Source: Patescibacteria group bacterium
GTDB lineage: Bacteria; Patescibacteriota; Gracilibacteria; UBA1369; PNNO01
Direction of reading: 5' to 3'
DNA length: 64,000 bases
Assembly (NCBI GenBank): GCA_042568575.1
Contig: JBHPIO010000001.1
Span: forward strand, 1-64,000
The notes under the pieces were generated by a model, which was given only the letters and a program-made list of their open reading frames with translations, was not told the origin of the DNA and ran no database searches. Position 1 is the first letter of the stretch. Every line of letters begins with the position of its first letter. Positions 3,849 through 58,002 of the stretch are shown here, in pieces. A program made the position numbers and the translations under genes.

Positions 3849-4424
3849 TTAAGAATCAGTAGAAGGAGTTGGAGCCGGTGCAGGCGCTGGCGTAGCAGCG
3901 GCAACAGGAGTTGCAGATGGCGCAGGGCAATCCGCATCAGGGCGGCATGCATTAATGTGATCACTTAAGAATGCTTTAATCCCTTCAGGATCTGGTGCTT
4001 CTGTAAATATAACAGTCGTTTTAGAAGAGGCAGTTTCAAGCCTAATTACTCCATAATCAAATAAATATAATGCTGCAAGAAGTCCTTTTTCTTGTGTATG
4101 AATGTCCTGAATATCAAAAAGTAGCGCTTCGCCTTCATCTCGTTTTGAGAGTAATTTCCAATCTATATGCACAATTCTGTTACTTGTAATCACTAATTTG
4201 TCGAGCCAGTAAATAAGTGCAAGATAAATGATGACAAGACTGAATAAACCTATTATTATAAAATTAGTGATAATGACTTGCTGTGATGTAAGAGCTCCCG
4301 AAATCAGAAACAATAAAAAGAAGAAAGGGATGCTTGCTCCCACAGCTTTCACCATCTGAATGATAAACGGGAATGGGTGGTGGTGGTAAACTTTGATGAT
4401 ATGTTCATCCTGTTTTAGTTCCAT
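3849..4424 (-). CDS. Membrane protein with bacterial PH (bPH_2-like) domain
   Basis: Two TM helices, then LVITSNRIV...IQDI...FDYGVIRLETA...PDPE. Confidence 0.75.
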   Translation of the reverse strand: MELKQDEHIIKVYHHHPFPFIIQMVKAVGASIPFFFLLFLISGALTSQQVIITNFIIIGLFSLVIIYLALIYWLDKLVITSNRIVHIDWKLLSKRDEGEALLFDIQDIHTQEKGLLAALYLFDYGVIRLETASSKTTVIFTEAPDPEGIKAFLSDHINACRPDADCPAPSATPVAAATPAPAPAPTPSTDS

Positions 4425-4500
4425 TTATTTATAATTAAAGAATGGAGAGGGAGTAAATAATAAAATCAAATGCGCCCGTTGTCAATAGAAGTACGTTGAA

Positions 4501-5292
4501 GTGCTCATAAAGCAAAAAAATAATACCCCAATTTATTTAAAACCTCAAATGAACCAAGACACATCTATAAAATGGAAAGTATCAGATGTATTTAATGTTT
4601 TTGTTTTAACATTTGTCTTAGAACTGCTTCTGTATGTCCTTATCCAAGCAATAGGGCTTCCAGACTTTGTAAAAATTATTTCTGACAATATTTTATTAAA
4701 GGGCATAATTTTGCTATTTATGTATTTGTTGCAAGTTGCTGGAATGCTTTTCCCTTTATGGTTTTTTATTATCAGGAAATACGCATCTAGATGGAAAGAC
4801 TTCGCTTTTAAATGGATTGGGACAGGTAAGACGATTTTGTGGATTATAATGGCATACCTTTTCTTTCTTGGACTTAGCATTCTTTTAATAATTATCTTTT
4901 TCAGCTTAGGAATTGAGGCTCTTGGATTTGAGAAGCAGAGTTCAATTTTTGAAATATTTGGAACTGATCCATTCGGAATTTTTATAGCGGTGCTTATCGC
5001 TCTTGTTATAGCGCCAGTTGTTGAGGAGATCTTTTTTAGAGGGTTTGTTTTGCAGACTTTAGCTAAACGTATAAGTCCATTTTGGGGAGTTGTTCTTACA
5101 GCCCTAATTTTTGCGTCTGTACATTTTGAATTTCAATCGATAATGCCGCTTCTAATTTTATCTGTTGTTCTAAATGTTATTTTCGTTAAAACAAAGTCGA
5201 TTTGGCCAGGAATTCTTTTCCATGTCTTTAATAATACGATTTCGTTTATTGCTTTATATTTTATAGAAAGTGGATATTATATTGTAAGTTGA
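4501..5292 (+). CDS. CPBP family (CAAX/Abi) intramembrane metalloprotease
   Basis: APVVEEIFFRG, FASVH and HVFNN motifs; multiple TM helices. Confidence 0.93.
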   Translation: MLIKQKNNTPIYLKPQMNQDTSIKWKVSDVFNVFVLTFVLELLLYVLIQAIGLPDFVKIISDNILLKGIILLFMYLLQVAGMLFPLWFFIIRKYASRWKDFAFKWIGTGKTILWIIMAYLFFLGLSILLIIIFFSLGIEALGFEKQSSIFEIFGTDPFGIFIAVLIALVIAPVVEEIFFRGFVLQTLAKRISPFWGVVLTALIFASVHFEFQSIMPLLILSVVLNVIFVKTKSIWPGILFHVFNNTISFIALYFIESGYYIVS

Positions 5293-5623: not shown

Positions 5624-7324
5624 TTGGATCAATTTGACAAGCTTAACAAGAAAATATTATTATTCGCTCTTGTTAATTTTATTATTATGCTTGACGATCA
5701 ATTTGACCACGATCCATCTCAAACATCTGATTCTGAAGAATTATCACCCGAACAAGTTTGGGGGAAACTAAATACGCGGGTGATGCTTGGTGACTTTAAA
5801 ATGGAAATTAATATGCCTGAGGATTCCGATGGCAGTTCTGAAGTAATAACTGTTAGAATTCCAACTGAAGATTTTCTAAACTTATCCTGTTTTCCTGTTA
5901 ATCCTGATAGACCTGAACCCATTGTTATAGAAGTTGAGGACTCACGTGATGAACAAAATTTTGATATTACGGCATCTCATAATTTTAAAGCTGCTCAAAG
6001 AGTCATATGGGAAAAAAATCTTAGTGATGATTGGAGATACATAATTGAAAATAGAAGATTGCGTGATAGTCATAGGTACGCTGATAGCATTAATGAACCG
6101 GATAAGCTTCCTGAGCCAGAAGAATGGGGGAGAGATCTTAAAACTGGGAGTCCTGCACTGGCTTATCCTGCTGTAGTAACTTATGGACACGGCAATTATG
6201 TGTATCGATATTTTCCTTATCAAGATCTTGCTGAAGAAAAACAAAGACGCACAGATGCGAATATAGAGAAAAGACATGAAGAAATGATAGCAGACGTCAA
6301 AGAAGATCATGGGCTTGAAATGGCCGAGAGATTTGCACAGACAATAGAATGGGTGAAAGCACGCAGAGGATATTGCCGTCTTTTATTAAATAAAGATATA
6401 TTACTACAGCGCACAATAGAATTTGAAAGAAATCTAAAGGAAGCAAAAATTTTCTATAATAGAGACAGCGAAAGGTGGGAAGCTATGGTAGCCGAAGGAA
6501 ATAGTACAAATTTTTATAGAGTTGAGGGGTACGCGGAGAAAGGGATTCATCCTGTTACGATTATGGGTCGTAAAACTGTAAGTATTTATCCTCCTCAAAA
6601 AGATTCTTCAGAAAAAAAACATCTGATGCTCAGGCAGGCTTGTCCAACAGACGTTGTTGAAGATACAAGAAGCAGATTAAAGGAGTCTCAGGCTGCGGAA
6701 ACACCCAATGAAATGAAACAACGTGCGTTGGCTACGGAGCTAGCTAATGGAGCAATGCCAGAAGAAATAGTCGAACATAACAAAAAAGTCGAAGAAGAAT
6801 TGAGAAGATTATGGTTCCGTTCGGACTGTGATGACACATTATTCAACGACCATCCATTAATCAAGTTAGATACAAAATCAACAAGAGCAACTGTTTATAA
6901 AGATAGTGTACACTTCCATGAATTTAGATCAGATGAAAGAAATGGAGTTGAAATCGATTGGGTTGAGTTTTATATGAACATTTTACAAGAAAATGAGATT
7001 TATGATGCAAGTCTTGAAGAAGTTGTAGATGATTTTCGTCAAGGATACCTGAACGGAAAGGCGAAACTGGAGGATTTTCTGAAAGATTTTATTTCTCCTG
7101 AAAACCGTAGGCAAATTGAAGAGACTGCGCCAGAAACAATTAATGTGAATGGTGGAGAATACAATATTGCTTATACTCCAACATTTAGTGATAGTGATAG
7201 TGGAAGTTATGAACTCTTTGAAGCCGAAATATCAATGAGTAGGTCTAAATATAGAGAATTAGAATCCACACCTAGATTGCCCACAGGTCAAATGATTAAT
7301 ATAAGATATGAATCTACTTGGTAG
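5624..7324 (+). CDS. Hypothetical acidic protein (probable start ATG 5687)
   Basis: Long ORF with no confidently recognised domain; TTGACA at 5634 lies upstream of ATG 5687. Confidence 0.65.
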   Translation: MDQFDKLNKKILLFALVNFIIMLDDQFDHDPSQTSDSEELSPEQVWGKLNTRVMLGDFKMEINMPEDSDGSSEVITVRIPTEDFLNLSCFPVNPDRPEPIVIEVEDSRDEQNFDITASHNFKAAQRVIWEKNLSDDWRYIIENRRLRDSHRYADSINEPDKLPEPEEWGRDLKTGSPALAYPAVVTYGHGNYVYRYFPYQDLAEEKQRRTDANIEKRHEEMIADVKEDHGLEMAERFAQTIEWVKARRGYCRLLLNKDILLQRTIEFERNLKEAKIFYNRDSERWEAMVAEGNSTNFYRVEGYAEKGIHPVTIMGRKTVSIYPPQKDSSEKKHLMLRQACPTDVVEDTRSRLKESQAAETPNEMKQRALATELANGAMPEEIVEHNKKVEEELRRLWFRSDCDDTLFNDHPLIKLDTKSTRATVYKDSVHFHEFRSDERNGVEIDWVEFYMNILQENEIYDASLEEVVDDFRQGYLNGKAKLEDFLKDFISPENRRQIEETAPETINVNGGEYNIAYTPTFSDSDSGSYELFEAEISMSRSKYRELESTPRLPTGQMINIRYESTW

Positions 7325-11952: not shown

Positions 11953-13770
11953 TTACTTGAGGAAGTCCAGGTATATGGACTTCTTCTTGCGCATGGGCCT
12001 TGGCTTTTGCCTACGCCTGGTTCGCATCGATGCGGGTCGTCTTCGACGACGACGTTTTCTCATGGCGGGAGGAGGATCCGGATCCATGTCCATCGCGTCG
12101 GGAGGATCCGTTGGCGTCGGTGGGAGAGCCATGGTGGGCTGCATCACAGGCTTGGGTCGTTGCATGGCCGGCGGCTTTTTCTTCGACTTATGCTTTATCG
12201 GCTTGATGACCACGTCCCTGCTCGCCTTCTTCGCCTTTGGTACCGTTACTTTCATAGGCTTGCCTGAAAACACTTTCTTTGGCTTCGAAGGCTTCGGATT
12301 GCGGTCGTATGTCGCGTAGAGCGTAACTCCCACAGCCAATAAAAGAACCAAAACCGCGACAGAAAGTATTGCCGCCTTGCTGAGCTTACTGCCGAAGATG
12401 TCGTACAGCCCGCCGTGCAGGAAGTAGAAAGCATTGGCGACCTTTTTGTAGCAGAACCAGAAGATCAAGGCCATCGCGTATGCGAAACGTGTCCACCAGT
12501 ATCCCCAGAAGTCTCTGGTGAAGGGGTTGCGGGGAGCACGAGACGAGTAGCCTCTGATTCCATCCATTGTGATTCTGTATCTCACAATGGGGTCGTCTTT
12601 CCAGTCTGGACGGTAGCCTTTACGAACTGGTGGTTGTGCACCTTGTATGATCGCAGTTTGTGCTGGATCACCACCGCCGAGAGGTTGATCGAAGGTGGAA
12701 ACATGAGGAGGAGTCAACGGCCCAGACAGAGCAGCTGCATCCTTCATCCACTCCGGGATCCGAGGACGCGCTGCAGTGTTAGTAAATGTAATCTGCGTTG
12801 GCGTCCCATCAAAGCCTAACTCTGGAGGTGGAAAGGGGATGTTGACGTGAACATCTTCGCGAAGTGCGCTGGGATCAGGTGGAGTTGTTGGGAAATTATG
12901 AGAGTTAGCCTGCCCAGGCTTACAATGGCTGGCCTGAGTGACCTCTGCTCCGGGATTTCCTTCTGCGATGATGTAGCACCCGCGCACCTTATCCCACGCT
13001 AGGTACTTTCCAGATTCGTATCGTATGTCTACCCAGGACTGACTAGGCTCGAAAACCCAGTCCGGGAGTACCAACTCGTGAGTGCTCTCGTCCCATACAA
13101 TTTCCGTTGGACGGCCATGAGTATAGAACTCAGGTGGTGGCAACGGGAACAGGATAGACACTCGTTCTCCTAGCTGCAGCGGTGGATGAGCTGGGCAGCC
13201 TTCCTGCATGCCTGGTTTGAACCACCAGCATCGTTTAGACTCTTTGTCCACCTGGACATAGCACATGACCTTGCCAGCAATCCAGAACAGGGGATCACCT
13301 TCATCACATGTTCCTGCCCTGTATATCTCGGACTCAGGTGGTGGGAGTTGAAGCTTGCTCGCTTCTGCTCGCATGGTTTCGGAGAGGTTGACCAGCGGTT
13401 CTGCGTCAGGGTCGGTTTTTTCACCGAAGTCGCCATCCACCGGTTTGCTCTCAACCTCAATGCTCCCAGCCGCACCTTTGAGGGCGCTGGCGTCGGGGAG
13501 TACCCAGGAAGGGAGATTAGGTGGTGGATTCCATTCAATTTCTGCCTCCCCACCAGGGAATGGGCATTCGTTGTTAACCTGCTCCATAAGCTCGTCGGGA
13601 AGCGGCTCATGCACAGGCACTTCGCTACTTCTCGCCGGCTTTACCCACTTGGCGGTCGTCGGGTCATCTGTGTCTACGACGATGTACATCTGCTCATTGT
13701 CGTCATAAGCAACACATTGTCCCGCACGCTTTTTCCAAGTAGATACATTGTCAATCCAGTATTGTGCCAT
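11953..13770 (-). CDS. GC-rich hypothetical membrane protein with three internal repeats, two TM helices and a Pro/Lys/Arg-rich tail
   Basis: 605-aa ORF; GGGAG RBS-like sequence before the ATG; consensus promoter upstream; visibly higher GC than its flanks. Confidence 0.8.
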   Translation of the reverse strand: MAQYWIDNVSTWKKRAGQCVAYDDNEQMYIVVDTDDPTTAKWVKPARSSEVPVHEPLPDELMEQVNNECPFPGGEAEIEWNPPPNLPSWVLPDASALKGAAGSIEVESKPVDGDFGEKTDPDAEPLVNLSETMRAEASKLQLPPPESEIYRAGTCDEGDPLFWIAGKVMCYVQVDKESKRCWWFKPGMQEGCPAHPPLQLGERVSILFPLPPPEFYTHGRPTEIVWDESTHELVLPDWVFEPSQSWVDIRYESGKYLAWDKVRGCYIIAEGNPGAEVTQASHCKPGQANSHNFPTTPPDPSALREDVHVNIPFPPPELGFDGTPTQITFTNTAARPRIPEWMKDAAALSGPLTPPHVSTFDQPLGGGDPAQTAIIQGAQPPVRKGYRPDWKDDPIVRYRITMDGIRGYSSRAPRNPFTRDFWGYWWTRFAYAMALIFWFCYKKVANAFYFLHGGLYDIFGSKLSKAAILSVAVLVLLLAVGVTLYATYDRNPKPSKPKKVFSGKPMKVTVPKAKKASRDVVIKPIKHKSKKKPPAMQRPKPVMQPTMALPPTPTDPPDAMDMDPDPPPAMRKRRRRRRPASMRTRRRQKPRPMRKKKSIYLDFLK

Positions 13771-13866
13771 GGTTCAAAACTCCCGCACACTTCTTGATGA
13801 AGCACGCTGCAAATTGTTGTCGTTTCTTTGTTGTCACTCTTGAAAACGCTGCCAACTACGGCTGCG

Positions 13867-46623: not shown

Positions 46624-49161
46624 ATGTGGAATTATATTCTACAACATCCGTTCAGGACGCTTATAATTGTTGCTGTCCTCGTAATTTTATACAGATATGC
46701 AGTCTGGCTGTTTCGCTATTTGATACAACTACATTATGCGAAAAAGCTTACATACATGCGGATAACTCTTCCGCGTGAAGATACACAGAAAGATAAAGAC
46801 AAGCAGGTTGAAAAGGATTTTCGCGAAAAAATTGGTGTGATGGATCAGTTTTACAGGAATATTCATGAAATTAGAGAGCTTTCCATATCTAATCGTATAA
46901 GGAATTTCTTTCTGAATCTCGATGTAGTTTCCTTTGAAATGGTTGCGATGAGCAGAGAGGTGAATTTTTATGTAGTAACTTATCCTTTTTATCAGCATAT
47001 TATTGAGAAGCAGATTACTTCGTATTACCCCGATGCAGACATTCAATTAACTGAAGCATACACCGTTGATCCTCCAGGAAATAAACAAAGATGTTTCTTT
47101 GCACATTTAAGCAAAGACAGCTGGTATCCAATTAAAACTTACAAAAAAATTGAGAACGATCCGTTAAATGATATGACAAACGTTCTTTCCAAATTGGGCG
47201 ATAATGATAAAGCGGTATTCCAGTTTGTTGTAAGTCCACGTTCAGATAGATGGAGAAAAAAAGCTGAAAAAATGGGAACGAGACTTTTCTTAAATAAACT
47301 CGGAAAAGGATGGATACCAAAAATACCTGTACTTGGAACTTTACTTAGTTGGATATTTGGTATTTTCACGGGAATTGCATTCGGATATGATCGCATGAAG
47401 AAACAGTCTGCAAGTACGGGTGCTCCGGAAGGAAGCCAGTATGTACGTATGCTTCAAACTAAAGAGGAAGTGGCAAAGATGATTGGTGAAAAAGCCAGCC
47501 AGGTTGGATTTGATGTGACTGTCCGAATTATTGCATCTTCAAAAACAAGCAGCGATGCTTATAAGCTTGGAAACAATATGATCCTGGCGTTGAATCTATT
47601 TAAAGATGCTTCAATGAACTGGTTTCAGACAAAAAGATTATTTTTCATTGATTCAATCAATAATAAACTTATGCTTCATGCATTTAAGAACAGGCTGCAT
47701 AATTTTAAACCTTTCCCAATATTTAGTGAAAAAGAATCGATAATGGTTCCGGAAGAACTTGCTGGAATGTATCACTTTCCAAGCAGCCGGTATAATTACA
47801 CTCCAATTATTAAATGGCTTAAATATAAAGTTGTGCCAGCCCCTGTAGATACTCCGCAGGAAGGGATTTACCTTGGAGATAATGTCTATCGAGGAGCTCG
47901 AAAAAAGGTTCATATACTACGAGACGATCGAACAAGGCATCACTATATAATCGGAAAATCCGGTGCAGGTAAATCGGTATTTATTAGTTTTATGGCAAGA
48001 CAAGACATTAGAAATGGCGACGGAGTTTGTGTGGTAGATCCGCATGGCGATCTTGTTGAAGATATACTTCATTATATTCCGAAAGAAAGGGCGAAAGACG
48101 TAATTGTGTTTAATCCTTCAGATCAGTTGCGTCCAATGGGTCTTAATATTTTGGAGGCAGATACGCCTGAGCAGCAGGATCTTGCATCAAGTCAGGCCAC
48201 AGAAATTTTCATCAAACTGTTTGGTGATGAGATATTTGGACCGCGAATTCAGCACTACTTCAGAAATGCTTGTTTAACATTAATGGAAGATAAAGATGAA
48301 GGCGCAACGTTAATTGATGTACCTCGAATGTTCGTGGATAACGACTTTATGAAATACAAAGTTAAGAAGGTTAGAAACCCTGTTGTACGTTCATTTTGGG
48401 AACATGAGTACGCCAACACGGGTGAAAGAGAACGTCAGGAAATGATTCCGTATTTCTCTTCTAAATTCGGACCGTTTATTACTAATTCGATAATGCGTAA
48501 TACGATTGGGCAAACGAAATCTGCGTTTAATTTCCGTGAAGTAATGGATAAACAAAAAATCCTACTAATCAACCTTTCTAAAGGTAAAATTGGTGATTTA
48601 AATACGCAGCTACTTGGACTGATTGTGGTCGCCAGAATACAAATGGCAGCGATGAGTCGTGCCGATATGCCGGAAGATCAACGTAAGGATTTCTATCTGT
48701 ACGTGGATGAGTTCCAAAACTTTGCGACGGACAGTTTCTGTTCGATTCTTTCTGAAGCCCGAAAATATCATTTGGCGTTAATTATGGCGCATCAATATAT
48801 TAAGCAGCTGGAAAAGAAACAAGACACTTCTATCCGTGATGCGGTATTTGGTAACGTCGGAACCATGATGTCATTTAAAGTTGGTGCCGATGATGCCGAG
48901 TATATGGCGAAGGAATACGCACCTGTTTTGACAGAATCAGATGTGCTCGGAATTGCGAACTATAAAGCATACATAAAGCTAAACATTAAAAACTCAACAT
49001 CAAGAGCATTTTCGCTTGAAACTATTTACGATACAACTGGCAAAAACAAGAAGATTGCCGAGATCGTAAAAGAATATTCAAGAATGAAATACGGACGAAA
49101 GAAAGAGTTTGTTAATCAGGAAATTGCGGCTCGAATTGGTATTGATCTAAGTGAAGAATGA
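46624..49161 (+). CDS. CPR-type VirB4/VirD4(TraG/TraD)-like ATPase, paralog 2
   Basis: DRTRHHYIIGKSGAGKS, VDPHGDL, FGPRIQHYFRN, YVDEFQN, LSEARKY. Confidence 0.9.
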   Translation: MWNYILQHPFRTLIIVAVLVILYRYAVWLFRYLIQLHYAKKLTYMRITLPREDTQKDKDKQVEKDFREKIGVMDQFYRNIHEIRELSISNRIRNFFLNLDVVSFEMVAMSREVNFYVVTYPFYQHIIEKQITSYYPDADIQLTEAYTVDPPGNKQRCFFAHLSKDSWYPIKTYKKIENDPLNDMTNVLSKLGDNDKAVFQFVVSPRSDRWRKKAEKMGTRLFLNKLGKGWIPKIPVLGTLLSWIFGIFTGIAFGYDRMKKQSASTGAPEGSQYVRMLQTKEEVAKMIGEKASQVGFDVTVRIIASSKTSSDAYKLGNNMILALNLFKDASMNWFQTKRLFFIDSINNKLMLHAFKNRLHNFKPFPIFSEKESIMVPEELAGMYHFPSSRYNYTPIIKWLKYKVVPAPVDTPQEGIYLGDNVYRGARKKVHILRDDRTRHHYIIGKSGAGKSVFISFMARQDIRNGDGVCVVDPHGDLVEDILHYIPKERAKDVIVFNPSDQLRPMGLNILEADTPEQQDLASSQATEIFIKLFGDEIFGPRIQHYFRNACLTLMEDKDEGATLIDVPRMFVDNDFMKYKVKKVRNPVVRSFWEHEYANTGERERQEMIPYFSSKFGPFITNSIMRNTIGQTKSAFNFREVMDKQKILLINLSKGKIGDLNTQLLGLIVVARIQMAAMSRADMPEDQRKDFYLYVDEFQNFATDSFCSILSEARKYHLALIMAHQYIKQLEKKQDTSIRDAVFGNVGTMMSFKVGADDAEYMAKEYAPVLTESDVLGIANYKAYIKLNIKNSTSRAFSLETIYDTTGKNKKIAEIVKEYSRMKYGRKKEFVNQEIAARIGIDLSEE

Positions 49162-50372: not shown

Positions 50373-51005
50373 ATGTTAACTCTCTCACTCATGAAAAAAA
50401 TATTTCTACTTTCACTTGCCGCTCTTCTTTTTATGTCCGGATGTAACGGTGGTGATGATTTAAACGGTCATATCGATGTTCCTTCTGATATCGATATTAC
50501 GTATACAAAAGGAAATGCAAATGCGTCTGTTACGATTACCGAGTATAGTGACTATCAGTGTCCATTTTGTGCTCGTTTAACACTTGAAGTGCTTCCACTG
50601 CTACAAAACGACTATATTGAAACAGGGAAGGTTTTATTTGTCTTTAAAGACTTGCCGCTTCCAAATCATAGGGATGCACAAAAGGCCAGTGAGGCAACAT
50701 ATTGCGCGGGTGAACAGGACGAAGATAAATATTGGGAAATGCACGTGAAGCTATTTGAAAATCAAAAGAATTTGGCTAGAGAAGATTTATCTACTTATGC
50801 TGGAGATTTGGAATTGAACGTTGAGGCTTTCGACAGTTGTCTTGATGCTGACAAGTACAAGAACCTTGTTTTGCGAAATAGGCAGGATGGTTTAAAGGCT
50901 GGTGTTGAAGGAACTCCTACATTGTTTATAAATGATACTCCACTTGTTGGATTGCCTCAATACGATGCTTTAAAACAGGTTATCGAAACTGAGCTACGGA
51001 AGTAA
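50373..51005 (+). CDS. DsbA-family thiol-disulfide oxidoreductase lipoprotein
   Basis: Lipobox MSGC; EYSDYQCPFC; GVEGTPT. Confidence 0.92.
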   Translation: MLTLSLMKKIFLLSLAALLFMSGCNGGDDLNGHIDVPSDIDITYTKGNANASVTITEYSDYQCPFCARLTLEVLPLLQNDYIETGKVLFVFKDLPLPNHRDAQKASEATYCAGEQDEDKYWEMHVKLFENQKNLAREDLSTYAGDLELNVEAFDSCLDADKYKNLVLRNRQDGLKAGVEGTPTLFINDTPLVGLPQYDALKQVIETELRK

Positions 51006-51016
51006 ACTGCGATTTT

Positions 51017-51271
51017 ATGAAAAAACGAAAGCCAAAGTGGGATATGCTCTCTGACAAAAGGAGGCAAAAGTGCATAAACGATATTATTGGTTTTTTTGAG
51101 ACTGAGCGAGACACCAAGATAGGCGTTATTGCCGCTGGAGAGGTGCTTGATTTCTTCATGGAACAACTTGCCGAGGATATTTACAACAACGGCGTTGAAG
51201 ACGCTAAGAACGTCTTTAAAGGTAAGCTGGAGGATTTGGAGATTGACTTGGAGATGCTGGGAAGTGGGTAG
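51017..51271 (+). CDS. DUF2164-like small protein
   Basis: I..FF..ERD..IG.IAA..VLDFF..QL...IYN.GV.DA. Confidence 0.85.
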   Translation: MKKRKPKWDMLSDKRRQKCINDIIGFFETERDTKIGVIAAGEVLDFFMEQLAEDIYNNGVEDAKNVFKGKLEDLEIDLEMLGSG

Positions 51272-51315
51272 GGGGTGGGATTTGTCAGTTAACTTCCATA
51301 TTTTTAACATTTTTT

Positions 51316-51762
51316 ATGAATGAAAATATAACAATCTATATAGCAATCTATGGAGCCATATTATCCACTATTGTGCTTATCTGGAACATTATTAAATATT
51401 ACTTAGATAAAGGTAGAATGGAACTAAATTGTATGCTTGGTAATATCGTTGGCTATAGAGTCAATGATAAAAAGTTATACCTCACCTATACAGTCACTAA
51501 TAAAGGGAATAAACCAATAACGATAACTCATGCAGGAGGAATTTACGAGAATAAACAAAATTTTTTGGTTAATGCTACAGAAATCCCAAAGAAATTAGAG
51601 CATGGTGAATATGTTACTATCAAAACTCCTGATCTTGAAAATCTTAAAGATATAAAAAAACTATATGTTGTTAATTCATTAGGACAATATTGCTATCTAA
51701 AAAGAAAAAAAATTAAAAAATTAAAAGAAAGTCTTAAAAAATACGTCTTCGGTTCATCGTAA
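51316..51762 (+). CDS. Cassette-like hypothetical protein (N-terminal TM helix)
   Basis: IAIYGAILSTIV.IWN TM helix followed by a beta-rich domain. Confidence 0.75.
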   Translation: MNENITIYIAIYGAILSTIVLIWNIIKYYLDKGRMELNCMLGNIVGYRVNDKKLYLTYTVTNKGNKPITITHAGGIYENKQNFLVNATEIPKKLEHGEYVTIKTPDLENLKDIKKLYVVNSLGQYCYLKRKKIKKLKESLKKYVFGSS

Positions 51763-51829
51763 ATGCTCGTACGGTGTAGCACTTCGTGCTAACATTGTAT
51801 GAAACACACAAAATATTAATTCTTTATAT

Positions 51830-52561
51830 ATGTTAGAAAAATTTGGTCCTATAAAAAATCCCCTAACAATAATTGCTATTTTTGCTGGAATAGCAGAAGT
51901 TAGCGGAACAGCTATACTGCCATTTATTGATATTAATAACCAAAACATATTCATTGGGTTCTTAATTGTATTTCCATCAATTTTAGTAATACTATTCTTT
52001 CTTACCCTAAACTTTAATCATAAAGTACTTTATGCTCCATCAGATTATAAAAATGAAGAAAATTTTGTAAAAACACTCAAATTTGATTACAACAAATTAG
52101 AATTAAAAGAAACAAAAGAATCCAAACAACAAATTATGGAGAAGACAAAGTACGAAATCAGTATCTCAAATTTTGAAGATGCAGAAAGGCTAATTAACAT
52201 ATATAAATCACAAAATTTTCTTGCAAACTTATATATAGGTATAGGAGAAGGAGAGGATCCTGGAAATAATAGTATCCAGTCTGAACATGAGGCAATATGG
52301 CTTGGAGCTAATGTATCCGTTGGCGTAGCTGTTCCAGTAATTAAAATTGCGAAAAAGTTTTATCCACATCTCAAGTATATACACCTATCATCAAATATTG
52401 ATGGAAGTCCAGATTATATTCATGATCAAATTTTTATTGGAGGAGCCACTTCCGCTGCTAAAAGACTGCACTTGCATCAGATATCAAAAGAAGACTTTAA
52501 TAAATTAAATGAGAAAATGTCACAAGAAGATTTTCATAGTTTTATTAAAAAAATTAGCTAA
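51830..52561 (+). CDS. Cassette hypothetical 2-TM protein
   Basis: NPLTIIAIFAGIAEVSGT...FF.TLNFNHKVLYAPSDY N-terminal module. Confidence 0.8.
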   Translation: MLEKFGPIKNPLTIIAIFAGIAEVSGTAILPFIDINNQNIFIGFLIVFPSILVILFFLTLNFNHKVLYAPSDYKNEENFVKTLKFDYNKLELKETKESKQQIMEKTKYEISISNFEDAERLINIYKSQNFLANLYIGIGEGEDPGNNSIQSEHEAIWLGANVSVGVAVPVIKIAKKFYPHLKYIHLSSNIDGSPDYIHDQIFIGGATSAAKRLHLHQISKEDFNKLNEKMSQEDFHSFIKKIS

Positions 52562-52723
52562 TTTTTTGTGTGCATCATAATACAGTGCACTCTTTCGCTT
52601 TGTTCAATCGTTTATCCAAGTTTTCGATGCGGCTTTTTGTTTCGCTCATATTGTACAGCATCTCAAATTCGCATATACTACAACTGTTAAGTAGCATGTT
52701 TTTGGTCTCAAACAAATCAACTT

Positions 52724-53581
52724 ATGGTAGAAAATAAGCCAGAACCAATCAATGAAGATGACCTTCCTGAATCAATACATGCTCAGTTAGCCAAAATTAC
52801 AGATGAAGGTAAGCGGAAAAGTCACGCACGATTTGTCCTTGCAGCTTTAGGAAGTATACCTTGGGTCGGCGGATTCCTAGGCGCAATGGCAGCAAAAGAT
52901 GCTGAAAAAGAACAAGGAGGTATAAATCAGCTTCAACAGTTATGGCTACAAGAACATGAAGAAAAGATACAAAAACTCGGTTACGTCTTGTTTCAAATTC
53001 TCTCGCGGCTTGAAAAATTTGGCGAAGAAATAGAAGAAAGGATAGAATCGTCTCATTATTTAGATCTTGTTCGAAAAGGATTTAGATCTTGGGATCAAGC
53101 AGATACCGAAGAGAAACGAGAGCTAATCAAGAAATTATTAACCAGTGCAGGGGCAATCAAGCTCTGCCCAGATGATCTTGTACGACTATTTATTGATTGG
53201 ATAGATAAATACCATGAGGCTCATTTCAAAGTAATTAAAGAGATATATCAAAAGCCAGGCATCACTCGAGGCGATATTTGGGATAACGTAAAAGGTGAAA
53301 GACCGCGAGAGGATTCTGCTGAAGCTGATTTATTCAAACTATTGATCCATGACCTCAATGTAGGCCGTGTAATAAGGCAAGCAAGGGATACGGATGGAGC
53401 GGGGAATTTCTTAAAAAAAACACGTGTTAAGTCGGCACGTGGATTAAGCCCTTCAAGAACAATGGAATCCGCCTTTGAAAATTCTAAACCATATGTACTA
53501 ACAGAATTAGGTAAGCAATTCGTGCATTACACTATGGAAGAAGTGGTTACACAAATAGAAGATCAAAAACACAGTACTTAA
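52724..53581 (+). CDS. Cassette hypothetical protein (possibly Abi-alpha-like with C-terminal wHTH)
   Basis: ALGSIPWVGGFLG N-terminal motif; YVLTELGKQFV C-terminus; stop codon overlaps the R'' site ACTTAAC. Confidence 0.75.
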   Translation: MVENKPEPINEDDLPESIHAQLAKITDEGKRKSHARFVLAALGSIPWVGGFLGAMAAKDAEKEQGGINQLQQLWLQEHEEKIQKLGYVLFQILSRLEKFGEEIEERIESSHYLDLVRKGFRSWDQADTEEKRELIKKLLTSAGAIKLCPDDLVRLFIDWIDKYHEAHFKVIKEIYQKPGITRGDIWDNVKGERPREDSAEADLFKLLIHDLNVGRVIRQARDTDGAGNFLKKTRVKSARGLSPSRTMESAFENSKPYVLTELGKQFVHYTMEEVVTQIEDQKHST

Positions 53582-53994
53582 CAGCGGGCTAGTCGGTTCG
53601 CTCACTAAAATTTTTTTTATGAAAATCTTATTAAGAAAATACGTAACAGTTACACTATTACTACTAATCATTTTGACTTTAAGTGGTTGTGCATCGCAGC
53701 CGACGATCAGTGACTATGGCCCAGGTTTCTTTGTAGGATTATGGCATGGAATTATTTCTCCATTCGCTTTAATTGGGAGTATTTTTATGGACATACGTAT
53801 ATACGAATTCCCTAATTCTGGATTTTGGTATGACCTAGGTTTCATAATAGGAATAGGCTGCTGGGGAGGTGGGGCAGCCGCAGCACATGATTAAGACACA
53901 AAAAAGACAATGCTCGCTAACCCAAATTTGGCGGTGGTGCGTTAACGCGCTATTATAACCACTGCCAAGCATCGTATATGTCGAAAAGTTGTAC
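53576..53994. repeat. Split attC-like site 1 (R'' ACTTAAC ... R' GTTGTAC) enclosing a lipoprotein gene
   Basis: Left arm aacagcgggctagtcggttcgctc; partial partner cgctaaccc at 53915-53923; hairpin ttggcggtggt/accactgccaa. Confidence 0.6.
53619..53894 (+). CDS. Small membrane lipoprotein
   Basis: Lipobox LSGC; PGFFVGLWHG..SP...IYE.PNSG.WYD.GF. Confidence 0.85.
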   Translation: MKILLRKYVTVTLLLLIILTLSGCASQPTISDYGPGFFVGLWHGIISPFALIGSIFMDIRIYEFPNSGFWYDLGFIIGIGCWGGGAAAAHD

Positions 53995-54050
53995 GAAATG
54001 CCAAATTAAGTTAGCCTTACAAAGGCTAATTTCTTAACAGAATATAAAAA

Positions 54051-54371
54051 ATGGCTACATATTTAGTATTATTCACTGCTATAACATTTTCTATAATGTG
54101 TATTTCATACAAAGCATTTGCAATCCAAAAAAGATGGGCAATTGGTAAAATATTATCCAAAGATGCATCTTTTCCAATAATAGCAGCTATCGCTACAGGT
54201 TTATGGGCACTTTATAAATCATTTGTTTATTTTGAATGGTGGACTCCTTTTGCAATATTGATCCTTGCATGGATTACGTCATTTTTATTAACTATTTTAT
54301 TCAAAAAGCATACTCAAATTCTGTGTATATTAGGTATTATTCCAGCTTTAATTGCAGTTGCACTAATATAA
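54051..54371 (+). CDS. Cassette 4-TM hypothetical protein
   Basis: Hydrophobic ORF bracketed by GTTGTAC (53988) and GTACAAC (54388). Confidence 0.75.
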   Translation: MATYLVLFTAITFSIMCISYKAFAIQKRWAIGKILSKDASFPIIAAIATGLWALYKSFVYFEWWTPFAILILAWITSFLLTILFKKHTQILCILGIIPALIAVALI

Positions 54372-54447
54372 ATTAGTTTGGTACATCGTACAACAGCGGG
54401 CTAGCCGGTTCGCTCCGCTAAATAAAATTATTCGTAACATTCTTCAG

Positions 54448-54906
54448 ATGAAAAAACTCCTTTTAATTCTAACTATCTTACTACTTGCAGGTTGTAATTC
54501 AACAACATCAAATATAATGGGCGAAAAAGTAGAAATCGAAAAACCAAAAGAAAACAAAATACTATCTCAAGAGCAATATTCACTTAGTTGTAAAACTCAT
54601 TATTACACTGATATTACAATTGGAGGTGATATTATTGAAGAATCATATATAAAAATCTCAGAAGGTCATGAAAATGCAACAATAAATGTAAATAATGAAG
54701 CTGCTACTTTCTTTGGTGCGGATTTTATTGTTTTAGATGATAACCCTTCATATCTTGTTATGATGAGATACTATGATGTAAGCGGATTGACTGAAGTTGT
54801 ATCAATTAATAAAGATACTGGTATTGGTTTTGATATAAAAACTCTAACTTTTGGTTTTTCTGGTGCTCCAAATACTACTACATATTTGATTAACTGTTAC
54901 GAATAA
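54448..54906 (+). CDS. Hypothetical lipoprotein
   Basis: MKKLLLILTILLLAGC lipobox. Confidence 0.85.
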   Translation: MKKLLLILTILLLAGCNSTTSNIMGEKVEIEKPKENKILSQEQYSLSCKTHYYTDITIGGDIIEESYIKISEGHENATINVNNEAATFFGADFIVLDDNPSYLVMMRYYDVSGLTEVVSINKDTGIGFDIKTLTFGFSGAPNTTTYLINCYE

Positions 54907-54930
54907 TTTTATTTTTTAATTATTATTAAT

Positions 54931-55341
54931 ATGAAAAAAGTTTTCATTCTCCTTGTTATTTTTGCTTTATTACTTACAGGTTGTTCAAATGGTAATCCTG
55001 ATCTTTCATATAAACAAGAATGTCGCGAACTTGTTAATGATGTTAAAGATGAATTCAATAACTTTAATAAAGAATACTTTGGGATAAAAGAAAAACATCT
55101 AGATTCTATTCAATACAGTAAAAGCAAAAATACATGTATAAGTAAAATAAAGGTTTATTATACTAATGGAAGGGCTGAAACCGTTTATAGAGATGAATTA
55201 ACTTCGAAAGAATTAACCTATTTTGTTCAATCATACGATGATATATCTGTTGAAATAGCGGAGAATGAAAACATCAACTTTATAGCTGAAGAAAGTAAGC
55301 GACAAGAGGAATACGAAAAAGAGCTGCAATTAATAGAATAA
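54931..55341 (+). CDS. Hypothetical lipoprotein
   Basis: MKKVFILLVIFALLLTGC lipobox. Confidence 0.85.
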   Translation: MKKVFILLVIFALLLTGCSNGNPDLSYKQECRELVNDVKDEFNNFNKEYFGIKEKHLDSIQYSKSKNTCISKIKVYYTNGRAETVYRDELTSKELTYFVQSYDDISVEIAENENINFIAEESKRQEEYEKELQLIE

Positions 55342-55383
55342 CTAGCCCATGGCCGTTAGACGAAAGCCCTTAAAATAAAAAAG

Positions 55384-56055
55384 ATGGATGACGAATTAAT
55401 AAAAATTGTTTTTGAAGATTTGGACTATATAACAAAGGAATGGAACGCTAAGGAAATTAGTGATGCTAATTTGCGCCATTCAAGTACGATCTTAAGAACT
55501 CTTTTAATTGAGAGGAAACTATTTGATGTCGCTCGTTCATTTGATATCCAGAAAATAAGGATAATGAGCTCTAATGAAGATTCTCCATCTTGGCCAGACC
55601 CAGTGCTCCACCAAGCTGGGGGAGGAAAGCATAAAGGATTAAAAATTGATGGATTTTCTGTTTATAACAAGACATTTACTTCACAAGAAATAAAAGAAAA
55701 AAGCAAAATCGCACTAGCACGTAAAAGCAAACCAATAGAATTAAATAAATACTTAAAGAATTCAAGTATAATTATCAATGGTATTGAAATAAACAGAGAA
55801 GAAATAATTAAATATGTTAGCAACAAACTTGGTGGAGCACATTACGATAAAAAAAGAGGGGACCCACTAAATAAAGAAGGAAATATTAGCCTGGAAGGTA
55901 AATATGCACTATTAGATGATTATAAAAACTCGAATAAACTCGCTGGAAAAAACTCCATTTATTTCGAATTACTTGAAATTGGACAAAAATTGGTTAATAA
56001 CCGCGATATTCAAAAACTAAAAAAGAAAATTAAAATTTATTTACAAAAAAGATGA
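55384..56055 (+). CDS. Cassette hypothetical protein (possible HEPN-like motif)
   Basis: LR..S.ILR.LL.E and REEIIKYVSNKLGGAHYD; preceded by R' GTTAGAC. Confidence 0.7.
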   Translation: MDDELIKIVFEDLDYITKEWNAKEISDANLRHSSTILRTLLIERKLFDVARSFDIQKIRIMSSNEDSPSWPDPVLHQAGGGKHKGLKIDGFSVYNKTFTSQEIKEKSKIALARKSKPIELNKYLKNSSIIINGIEINREEIIKYVSNKLGGAHYDKKRGDPLNKEGNISLEGKYALLDDYKNSNKLAGKNSIYFELLEIGQKLVNNRDIQKLKKKIKIYLQKR

Positions 56056-56102
56056 AGGATTTTTTCACAAACCTGGACTTCTGTTGCAGAACTCCTTGGT
56101 CC

Positions 56103-56183
56103 TCTCCCCCTTACGGGCTCGAGATAAGTTCTCTTCCTACTCGTAGAACCTCAAAGAGGCTCCACTCGTAGCAAGTGGGAACT
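56103..56183 (-). repeat. tRNA-3'-adjacent structured repeat, copy 2
   Basis: Reverse complement agttcccacttgctacgagtggagcctctttgaggttctacgagtaggaagagaacttatctcgagcccgtaagggggaga is homologous to 5410-5489. Confidence 0.75.
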
Positions 56184-56185
56184 TA

Positions 56186-56262
56186 TGGTGGCAAGGGTGG
56201 GGATCGAACCCACGACCTCGGGCTTATGAGTCCCGCGCTCTAACCAACTGAGCTACCTTGCC
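56186..56262 (-). tRNA. tRNA-Met (CAT), elongator-type
   Basis: Reverse complement ggcaaggtagctcagttggttagagcgcgggact CAT aagcccg...ggttcgatccc...cttgccacca; G1-C72 paired; tRNA-Ile2 not fully excluded. Confidence 0.93.
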
Positions 56263-57321: not shown

Positions 57322-58002
57322 ATGAAAAAACTATTTGCACTTCTAATCATTTCCCTGCTTGTTCTTTCTGGATGCGCTCAACCAAGCGAACCAATTGAGG
57401 TTGAACAGCAGCCGTCGCCTGAAGTTGTACAGCCAGAGCAACCGCTTGAAGAAGAGACAAAATCAGACAATCCTATTGTTCTTGAAGAATTTGGTTTTGA
57501 GATAAGTTATCCGGAAGAATGTAATATTAAAGAACTCGCGAGCGGGATTGATCAAGAAGCATTAATGTCATATCACTTGTTAGACTGTTCATTTAAACCT
57601 ATGTACCTAACTGGAATTTTTGTTGCAACAAGTGAATCAATCGATAAATTCGTTGAATTTAAAGATGGAAAACCTCTGTGTTTTGATGGTCCAGAAACAT
57701 GTAATCATGAATATGATTGGAATACACACAGGGAGGACTTTGATCGTTTAAAAGAATCAATCAGTCAAAATAAAGATTTAGATGTTGAAATTAACGGTCG
57801 TCAATTTACCACTGATAATCGATGGTGGCTATTTAGTGCCGAAATAATAAGAACATACGAGACATTTGTTGGTGATAAAAGGATTACTATCGTTATTGTT
57901 TGGAGTACAACAAGAGCGGAATATGAGGAGAACATGCACATTTACGATAAAGAGGCTGATGAGCTTGTTGGAAGGTTTCAGTTTGTAGAAATCCCGGAGT
58001 AG
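57322..58002 (+). CDS. Hypothetical lipoprotein
   Basis: MKKLFALLIISLLVLSGC lipobox; FGFEISYP motif. Confidence 0.85.
   Translation: MKKLFALLIISLLVLSGCAQPSEPIEVEQQPSPEVVQPEQPLEEETKSDNPIVLEEFGFEISYPEECNIKELASGIDQEALMSYHLLDCSFKPMYLTGIFVATSESIDKFVEFKDGKPLCFDGPETCNHEYDWNTHREDFDRLKESISQNKDLDVEINGRQFTTDNRWWLFSAEIIRTYETFVGDKRITIVIVWSTTRAEYEENMHIYDKEADELVGRFQFVEIPE

Follow-up and report, generated by a model that had tools for sequence, protein, structure and literature searches.

In textbooks, bacteria capture genes by means of integrons, whose recombination sites (attC) are regarded as short and non-coding and whose integrase (IntI) is defined by a special domain. A 64,000-nucleotide (nt) stretch of a Patescibacteria genome, called the window here, raises the question of what a cassette-type recombination site is when one or two lipoprotein genes lie between its arms. 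The window comes from contig C1 of the 1.2-Mb genome G000. C2, C6 and C12 are further contigs of G000, labels such as G001, G006 and G010 denote genomes of the same order of the candidate phyla radiation (CPR), and labels such as L016 and L029 denote fetched loci. The answer judged rather probable is that the two sites in the window are decayed members of a gene-bearing, attC-like class of sites, and that this class is part of an integron-like system of cassettes with a wide distribution in this CPR order.

The original prediction for the locus described two R'' cores followed by the same 24-nt repeat, three lipoprotein genes, a right arm at 55342-55361 and a second site spanning 974 nt, and all of these are present at those positions. 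The cores ACTTAAC (53576-53582) and GTACAAC (54388-54394) run into copies of AACAGCGGGCTAG(T/C)CGGTTCGCTC at 53580-53603 and 54392-54415 that are 23/24 identical. Two matches to this repeat were obtained in 0 of 100 shuffles and the genome holds only these two copies. At 7/7 positions, each R'' core complements the R' of the site before it, which is GTTAAGT (52686) for the first and GTTGTAC (53988) for the second, and the complementarity extends over 25-26 nt. A 25-nt inverted repeat links the start and the end of the cassette at 52724-53581, and a 26-nt inverted repeat pairs 53988-54013 with 54369-54394. The nested genes encode LSGC, LAGC and LTGC lipoboxes after hydrophobic N-termini, with weak Pfam LPAM_1 matches (E = 0.04 and 0.008). 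These lipoboxes had been described as restricted to the three nested genes, and no other open reading frame (ORF) of the surrounding island has a canonical one; canonical lipoboxes are carried by the flanking genes at 50373-51005 and 57322-58002. No homologue of the 152-aa nested lipoprotein was found in the 204 other genomes of the order (E <= 1e-5). The short sequence 'cgctaaccc' (53915-53923), which had been taken as the partner of the first left arm, was misassigned: it is part of a conserved GCTCGCTAACCC motif (53912-53923) that precedes a central hairpin in all related sites.

Relatives of these sites define a family with a constant anatomy. The 24-nt motif is found in G006 and G010, which belong to the same family as G000 (3/61 genomes including G000), and there it sits within long arrays of 112-170-nt structured repeats; the G006 array is ~24 kb long. 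The terms type D, half-motif, linker arm and central hairpin were coined for the present analysis. An alignment of 23 normal sites gives the order ..AAC, AG, a 9-nt L'' box, CGG with the first half-motif, a linker that is 3-4 nt long or forms a ~40-nt hairpin, the second half-motif with CCCA at its end, the central hairpin, ..TCG with the L' box, a 4-nt spacer and GTT..... The AAC and GTT are invariant, and 9/12 of the L''/L' pairs show compensatory changes by RNAalifold. A normal 162-nt site is predicted to fold as a three-way junction (z = -6.2). In the consensus, the L stem contains a 1x1 mismatch, the spacers beside the R box differ in length (1 nt vs 4 nt) and a large bulge lies on one side; no conserved single bulged (extrahelical) base was identified. 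A covariance model built from the aligned normal-size sites, R1, has matches in 93/151 sampled genomes of the order, and the intact platform of G000 comprises 11 strong sites (75-114 bits; C12:64015-70142, minus strand). Rfam scans gave only tRNAs in the 64-kb window and one weak chance match in the strong array L016, and thus no described RNA or DNA family covers the sites. The left arm with the 24-nt motif is the R''-L'' half of one site lineage, type D (L'' CGGGCTAG).

Two variants of the normal site were also observed. L037, from G006, holds four ~210-nt sites with A+T-rich non-coding expansions of hairpin loops (4240-4450, 5035-5244, 6200-6412 and 7073-7282). These are intermediate in length between normal and gene-filled sites, so that site size forms a continuum. 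L031 features a repeated ~130-nt cassette that lacks an ORF and ends in a ~77-nt site variant without the bulge (5893-6031 and 6900-7032).

Outside the window, type-D loci are found in G006, G010, L029 (and the near-identical L036), L031, L033, L034 (and the near-identical L035) and L035b, and as a variant in G100. Those beyond the family genomes were retrieved by exact-pattern scans of public genome_contigs and metagenome_contigs, whereas L035b and the covarying G100 variant were added by a pairing scan. A loose pairing scan gave 262 candidate pairs, 112 of them longer than 200 nt, most of which are noise from A+T-rich sequence with G-T pairs allowed; only pairs with conserved modules on inspection were retained. 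Scripted ORF calls covered the cassette-sense strand only. All distinct type-D copies (10/10) enclose an ORF after the left arm and span 296-974 nt, compared with 112-170 nt for normal sites. In the 8/8 copies outside the window the ORF is followed by a second half-motif, a central hairpin and the right arm CTAGCCCG-CGRCC-GTTRRRY or a near variant, and so the right-arm partner is as consistent, and the arms as firmly associated with R''/R' cores, as the original prediction required. No empty type-D site was found among 205 genomes of the order, genome_contigs, metagenome_contigs and viral_contigs, and viral_contigs gave 0 matches to either arm. The right-arm pattern with <=3 mismatches occurs at 15 places in the 205 genomes, and only those in G006 and G010 are type D. 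The place in G179 is a normal 144-nt site of another type and 12 lack the left arm; a reversed-pattern control gave a similar result. One type-D site lies on the 6.8-kb contig L029, binned as a Promethearchaeota archaeon metagenome-assembled genome (MAG), which carries CPR-type sites. Either the binning is wrong or the contig points to spread across domains; Asgard MAGs are enriched in integrons according to the available part of a preprint on archaeal integrons.

Every copy of the motif has an ORF start 15-60 nt downstream, a position that would also suit a promoter, leader or terminator element of small envelope-protein genes that lies outside any recombination site. This explanation is very improbable. 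An R'' core, paired with the previous R', stands ahead of the 24-35-nt motif in every case, a complementary partner lies downstream of the gene, promoter-like sites (24 vs 23 expected) and terminator-like sites (2 vs 2.8 expected) are at background numbers, and there is no match to an Rfam family.

Gene-filled sites are not confined to type D. G086, a genome of another family, features three gene-filled sites with other L types: a Fic-family gene with a small ORF occupies the linker hairpin of the first, HicA and HicB lie in the linker of the second, and the third has HicA and a HicB-like gene in the loop of its central hairpin. One site type in the G086 array occurs in at least 7 empty copies (121-133 nt) and 2 filled copies (614 and 895 nt), which is the coexistence of empty and gene-filled versions that had been named as support for genes riding inside a site. 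A linker hairpin with the closing pair GGCATTTT/AAAATGCC encloses 26 nt at one normal site of G086 and ~800 nt at the filled one. The gene-filled design extends to three families of the order (f1, f17 and f19), represented by independent assemblies. The general claim of cassette-type recombination sites with whole genes between their arms is supported by these copies, whereas the proposed link to surface lipoproteins is not. The nested products include lipoproteins, small membrane proteins and a zinc-ribbon peptide, and a lipoprotein is the cargo in only 2/8 type-D sites outside the window, the others carrying small membrane proteins or the zinc-ribbon peptide; the G086 sites carry Fic or HicAB. 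At least 9 unrelated genes are found among the 10 type-D copies, and related nested proteins were found only in two pairs, G010/L035b (54% identity) and two HicB-like proteins.

Conservation of pairing across the inserts suggests that these sites are maintained as structures. At the gene-filled sites outside the window (n = 11), 11-12/12 L-stem pairs are kept over spans of 296-895 nt; in L035a and G100 the L stem shows double changes that compensate each other. The inserts are usually bounded by closing inverted repeats of 14-21 nt; 10/13 sites score >=11, with a mean of 13.6 vs 9.5 in 156 cross-site controls, which are themselves inflated by a common A+T-rich motif. In the pair G010 and L035b the arms have changed less than the cargo: the nested ORFs share 68% identity, compared with 25/26 positions of the left arm and 14/16 and 16/16 of the closing repeats, and the central hairpins differ in sequence while a stem forms in both. 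The 304-nt and 340-nt gene-filled sites have predicted folds with z = -3.8 and z = -5.8, respectively, and 0/100 shuffles were as good in either case. Both are predicted to form a three-way junction with the gene in one arm. Together, the pairing and the predicted folds are consistent with selection of the gene-filled sites as structures.

The two copies in the window are decayed. In site 1 the L' box TATATGTCG (53975-53983) is not complementary to its own L'' and 8/12 L-stem pairs form. The site is a chimera of a type-D left arm, a nested gene and a non-matching right module, which probably arose via recombination between sites. Site 2 spans 974 nt and its L stem is down to 9/12 pairs; the closing repeat of its first nested gene is still perfect. 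Such features raise the alternative of ordinary decay, in which deletion or fusion of neighboring site halves between independent cassettes produced the arrangement without any function. The union of a type-D left arm with a right arm of another type in site 1, the loss of the second half-motif and central hairpin in site 2, and an island with weak R1 scores and no recombinase all fit this explanation. Rearrangement of this kind, which had been named as grounds for refutation, does account in part for site 1 and for other features of the window copies. As an account of the whole class it is contradicted and improbable, however, because the 11 gene-filled sites outside the window keep 11-12/12 pairs with compensatory changes, closing inverted repeats and significant folds are retained there, the design recurs in f1, f17 and f19 and in independent assemblies, and two precise deletions per site would be required every time.

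The arrays obey a cassette logic. In 40 consecutive pairs, the R'' of a site matches the R' of the previous site at 5.4/7 variable positions, compared with 3.45 for its own R' and 3.42 for random pairs, and a match of at least 6/7 is found in 26/40 consecutive pairs vs 8% of random pairs. The test rests on 40 pairs because a stricter filter kept 57 sites and discarded most real ones. The R''/R' chain continues through the gene-filled sites of L016 (by eye) and of the window. In L017, one cassette is found behind two different sites and the identity starts at the spacer beside R'. If the crossover occurs at G/TT of R', the start of a cassette should be complementary to its own R'', and the sequences suggest that the crossover falls at R'. 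The chain and the L017 cassette indicate that the system works like an integron, although the insert that defines IntI was tested for and is absent from the recombinase of this family.

The recombinase linked to the arrays has been characterized by sequence comparison. A tyrosine recombinase gene is divergent from the adjacent arrays at G000:C12:70602-71456, L017:1316-2137 and G006:C1:1182392-1183192. The G000 protein is XerA-like, has 284 aa and adjoins the 11-site array (64015-71456 overall), and a homologous divergent recombinase lies <=1 kb from the first site in 11/25 fetched loci, with one more cut by a contig end. The family's recombinase (273-295 aa) aligns with the integron integrase model TIGR02249 only at positions 2-182 and 237-313, and the gap between 182 and 237 indicates that the IntI-specific insert is absent from it; all four tyrosine recombinases of G000 miss positions 183-236. 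The family's proteins score 188-195 bits (195 for the array-linked protein of G000) against a cut-off of 265 for the IntI model, and 0/13 genomes of this family and 1/205 of the order (G142) exceed it. The canonical IntI match in G142 was set aside, as it sits on a 4.1-kb contig with a GC content of 0.47-0.55 and no sites, and is probably mis-binned. The best match is the XerA model NF040815, with 220.8 bits for the G000 protein and 209.9 for the G010 protein at a cut-off of 220, and the closest solved structures are archaeal XerA-type proteins followed by IntI4. The original prediction had looked to an IntI-type recombinase in this genome; none was found, and the array-linked enzyme is a short XerA-like protein on another contig. 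In G049, a genome of another family, a site-adjacent recombinase of 324 aa (L082, i.e., G049:C73, 1339-2313) features an insert at the IntI position. It aligns with the IntI model over its full length with 231.8 bits, which is below the cut-off of 265, and its best Protein Data Bank (PDB) match is IntI4. This protein may be an intermediate between IntI and the short form, and both IntI-like long and short recombinases accompany the site family. On these alignments the array recombinase is best described as IntI-related, and as short and XerA-like in the family of G000.

These results can be combined in a proposed mechanism. A single-stranded site would fold in the cell as a three-way junction composed of the R/L stem, the central hairpin and the linker arm. 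The loop of the linker arm, or in one case that of the central hairpin, would hold one or more complete genes in some sites. The inverted repeats of the insert would zip it shut, so that the site's two halves come together. One cassette would then consist of the upstream cassette gene, the site and the nested gene, and be exchanged at G/TT of R' by the recombinase of the array. The nested gene would be carried passively, as a passenger of the upstream cassette, with the closing repeat preserving the fold.

Several findings weigh against this mechanism. The left arms of G010, L029 and L033 are 94-100% identical and their right modules 96-99% identical, and their inserts are unrelated; passive carriage does not explain near-identical frames around unrelated genes. 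The IntI-specific insert is tied to the recognition of folded attC in integrons, and its absence from the family's recombinase makes single-strand recombination an assumption here. The sites in the window fold no better than shuffles (z = -0.24 and -0.60) and score 9-23 bits with R1, compared with 75-114 for the C12 sites. Finally, the gene-filled sites come from motif-guided and strict-pairing scans, and their frequency is therefore poorly known.

The near-identical frames keep alive a second idea, two-tier mobility, which is less than likely but has specific observations in its favor. The nested genes would be independent modules that are inserted or swapped by a dedicated site-specific reaction at the hairpin loops of the sites; in one variant, the target would be a repeated G(T/C)TCGCTCAC core flanked by inverted repeats and the site would serve as a docking pocket. 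Besides the shared frames and the diversity of type-D cargo, this idea is favored by inserts that begin TAAA.. and end ..TTTA(C) and whose terminal inverted repeats lie within a direct repeat of 10-11 nt, by the coexistence of empty and filled copies of one type, and by inserts in two different hairpin loops. However, neither the inserts nor their immediate surroundings contain an additional recombinase or mobility gene. Empty sites have the two half-motifs as well, which hence are not a target duplication, and the paired half-motifs are not always identical (7-10/11 positions by eye). The inverted repeats vary between inserts, no solo or circular module was seen, and no insert was found in two different frames. 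The sole pair of homologous inserts, G010 and L035b, lies in homologous frames, which indicates co-inheritance. The earlier suggestion that a distinct second family of elements targets cassette ends is likewise not supported. A broader form of the same idea, also doubtful, is that the CPR order runs a two-layer gene capture, in which an IntI-related recombinase that shed the IntI domain shuffles cassettes at G/TT and the loops dock second-layer modules such as envelope proteins and toxin-antitoxin pairs. Passive carriage within gene-bearing sites is preferred here.

The sites of the window lie in an island whose features are listed in Table 1. In G001, a genome of the same genus, the stop codon of dsbA is only 10 nt from tRNA-Met, and the window and G001 share 78-93% identity in the LytR-like, DsbA-like and XRE-like proteins of the flanks; the segment 51006-56185 is an insertion. 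Its GC content is 0.29-0.34 over most of its length, compared with ~0.37 in the flanks, and it contains six co-oriented ORFs without a Pfam family and one DUF2164 gene. Four recognizable site remnants lie within 52571-55367 by model R1, with no tyrosine recombinase on this part of C1. No recombinase gene was found in the island, and the four tyrosine recombinases of G000 are located only on C12, C6 and C2, which makes the island similar to clustered attC sites that come without an integron integrase (CALIN). The lack of a recombinase, together with lost L-box complementarity in site 1 and the lost central hairpin in site 2, indicates that the window sites are probably fossils, and the island is probably a fossil, CALIN-like piece of an array.

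Table 1. Features of the cassette island in the window (coordinates of the 64,000-nt stretch).
Feature	Coordinates	Strand	Remarks
Island of co-oriented cassette-like ORFs, 5.2 kb	51006..56185	.	between dsbA-like gene and tRNA-Met 3' end
Degenerate normal-size site	52571..52698	+	R' GTTAAGT at 52686-52692; L boxes no longer pair; R1 19.2 bits; fold z = -0.24
Cassette ORF, 285 aa, no Pfam family	52724..53581	+	stop codon overlaps R''
Site 1 left arm	53576..53605	+	R'' ACTTAAC, AG, L'' CGGGCTAG, first half-motif GGTTCGCTCAC; arm recurs at 8 other loci
Site 1 nested gene, 91-aa lipoprotein, LSGC	53619..53894	+	no Pfam family
Site 1 right module	53912..53994	+	second half-motif GCTCGCTAACCC, central hairpin, L' TATATGTCG, R' GTTGTAC 53988-53994; R1 23.2 bits
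Cassette ORF, 106-aa membrane protein	54051..54371	+	
Site 2 left arm	54388..54418	+	R'' GTACAAC, AG, L'' CGGGCTAG, first half-motif; R1 14.8 bits
Site 2 closing inverted repeat, left copy, 20 nt	54420..54439	+	100% complementary to 54895-54914
Site 2 nested gene 1, 152-aa lipoprotein, LAGC	54448..54906	+	
Site 2 closing inverted repeat, right copy	54895..54914	+	overlaps stop codon of nested gene 1
Site 2 nested gene 2, 136-aa lipoprotein, LTGC	54931..55341	+	occupies place of second half-motif and central hairpin
Site 2 right arm	55342..55361	+	L' CTAGCCCA, spacer TGGCC, R' GTTAGAC; homologous to relatives' CTAGCCCG-CGRCC-GTTRRRY
Last cassette-like ORF, 223 aa, no family	55384..56055	+	no recognizable site after it
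tRNA-Met	56186..56262	-	3' end abuts island

Other observations concern the surroundings of these features. The last island ORF and tRNA-Met are separated by 130 nt of non-coding sequence (56056-56185), which contains several short hairpins, matches no site and is missing from G001. A tRNA-fragment origin of the 24-nt motif was considered and dropped, as its likeness to tRNA-Met is unconvincing by eye. The gene at 46624-49161, 2 kb upstream of the island, encodes an 845-aa protein whose TrwB/TraG-like domains are those of type IV secretion coupling proteins. The region 11953-13800 has a GC content of 0.51-0.55, compared with ~0.37 for the genome, and features a 605-aa ORF on the minus strand with overlapping plus-strand ORFs; it has no Pfam family and no Rfam match.

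The wider meaning of these results depends on the CPR order as a whole, in which arrays follow integron cassette logic, the recombinase mostly lacks the IntI domain, and the sites are predicted three-way junctions, some of which house genes. If the sites are active, the limits for structure-specific recombination sites would be wider, standard integron finders may miss such arrays, and the genesis of cassettes, i.e., how a gene becomes joined to a site, would become testable. If the docking pockets were true, they would offer a natural route for physically joining a gene to a recombination site; the origin of cassettes is an open matter in integron biology. Searches of the full-text literature on integrons or attC together with CPR, Patescibacteria or XerA, which leave most subscription journals and the supplements outside, found no description of CPR integrons, and the available part of the IntegronFinder 2 paper reports none.

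Among known systems, the window island resembles a CALIN in that its cassette-like ORFs form a short series, their sites are degraded and the neighborhood contains no recombinase, and it differs in lying in a 5.2-kb insertion beside a tRNA gene while the genome's intact array is on another contig. Gene modules bounded by inverted sites and a Xer-type recombinase are shared with the dif/pdif modules of Acinetobacter plasmids, in which the inverted sites are simple, 28-bp, double-stranded and dif-like, whereas the CPR sites are structured, 112-170 nt long and follow integron cassette logic. Extra DNA inside a cassette recombination site is also a feature of IS1111-attC insertion sequences and group IIC-attC introns, which target attC sites (PMC3001079 and PMC7923331); these elements encode their own transposase or reverse transcriptase, whereas the CPR inserts are small genes or toxin-antitoxin pairs without a mobility gene.

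The closest likeness is to the sedentary chromosomal integron. Both feature long arrays of co-oriented, mostly orphan small ORFs separated by imperfect-palindrome sites, ..AAC / GTT.... cores with L'' and L' boxes that covary as a stem, a tyrosine recombinase that lies divergently at an end of the array, an R'' that matches the start of its own cassette, and toxin-antitoxin cargo. The differences are that the family's recombinase (273-295 aa) lacks the IntI insert and is best classed as XerA-like, while the 324-aa form of G049 aligns with IntI over its full length, and that the CPR sites combine a conserved central hairpin with two half-motifs and a large bulge on one side, with no obvious extrahelical bases. 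Branched terminal structures are also common ground, being described for chromosomal integrons in the available part of PMC5027507, which gives attC lengths of 57-141 bp; the CPR sites measure 112-170 nt when normal and 296-974 nt when gene-filled. The terminal structure of natural class 1 sites is 3-100 nt in the accessible text of PMC7439510, and archaeal IntIs carry the additional domain of IntI according to the portion of the archaeal-integron preprint available, which makes no mention of CPR or Patescibacteria. Taken together, the comparison suggests that an integron-like system with gene-bearing sites and a recombinase without the IntI hallmark is an undescribed variant of the integron.

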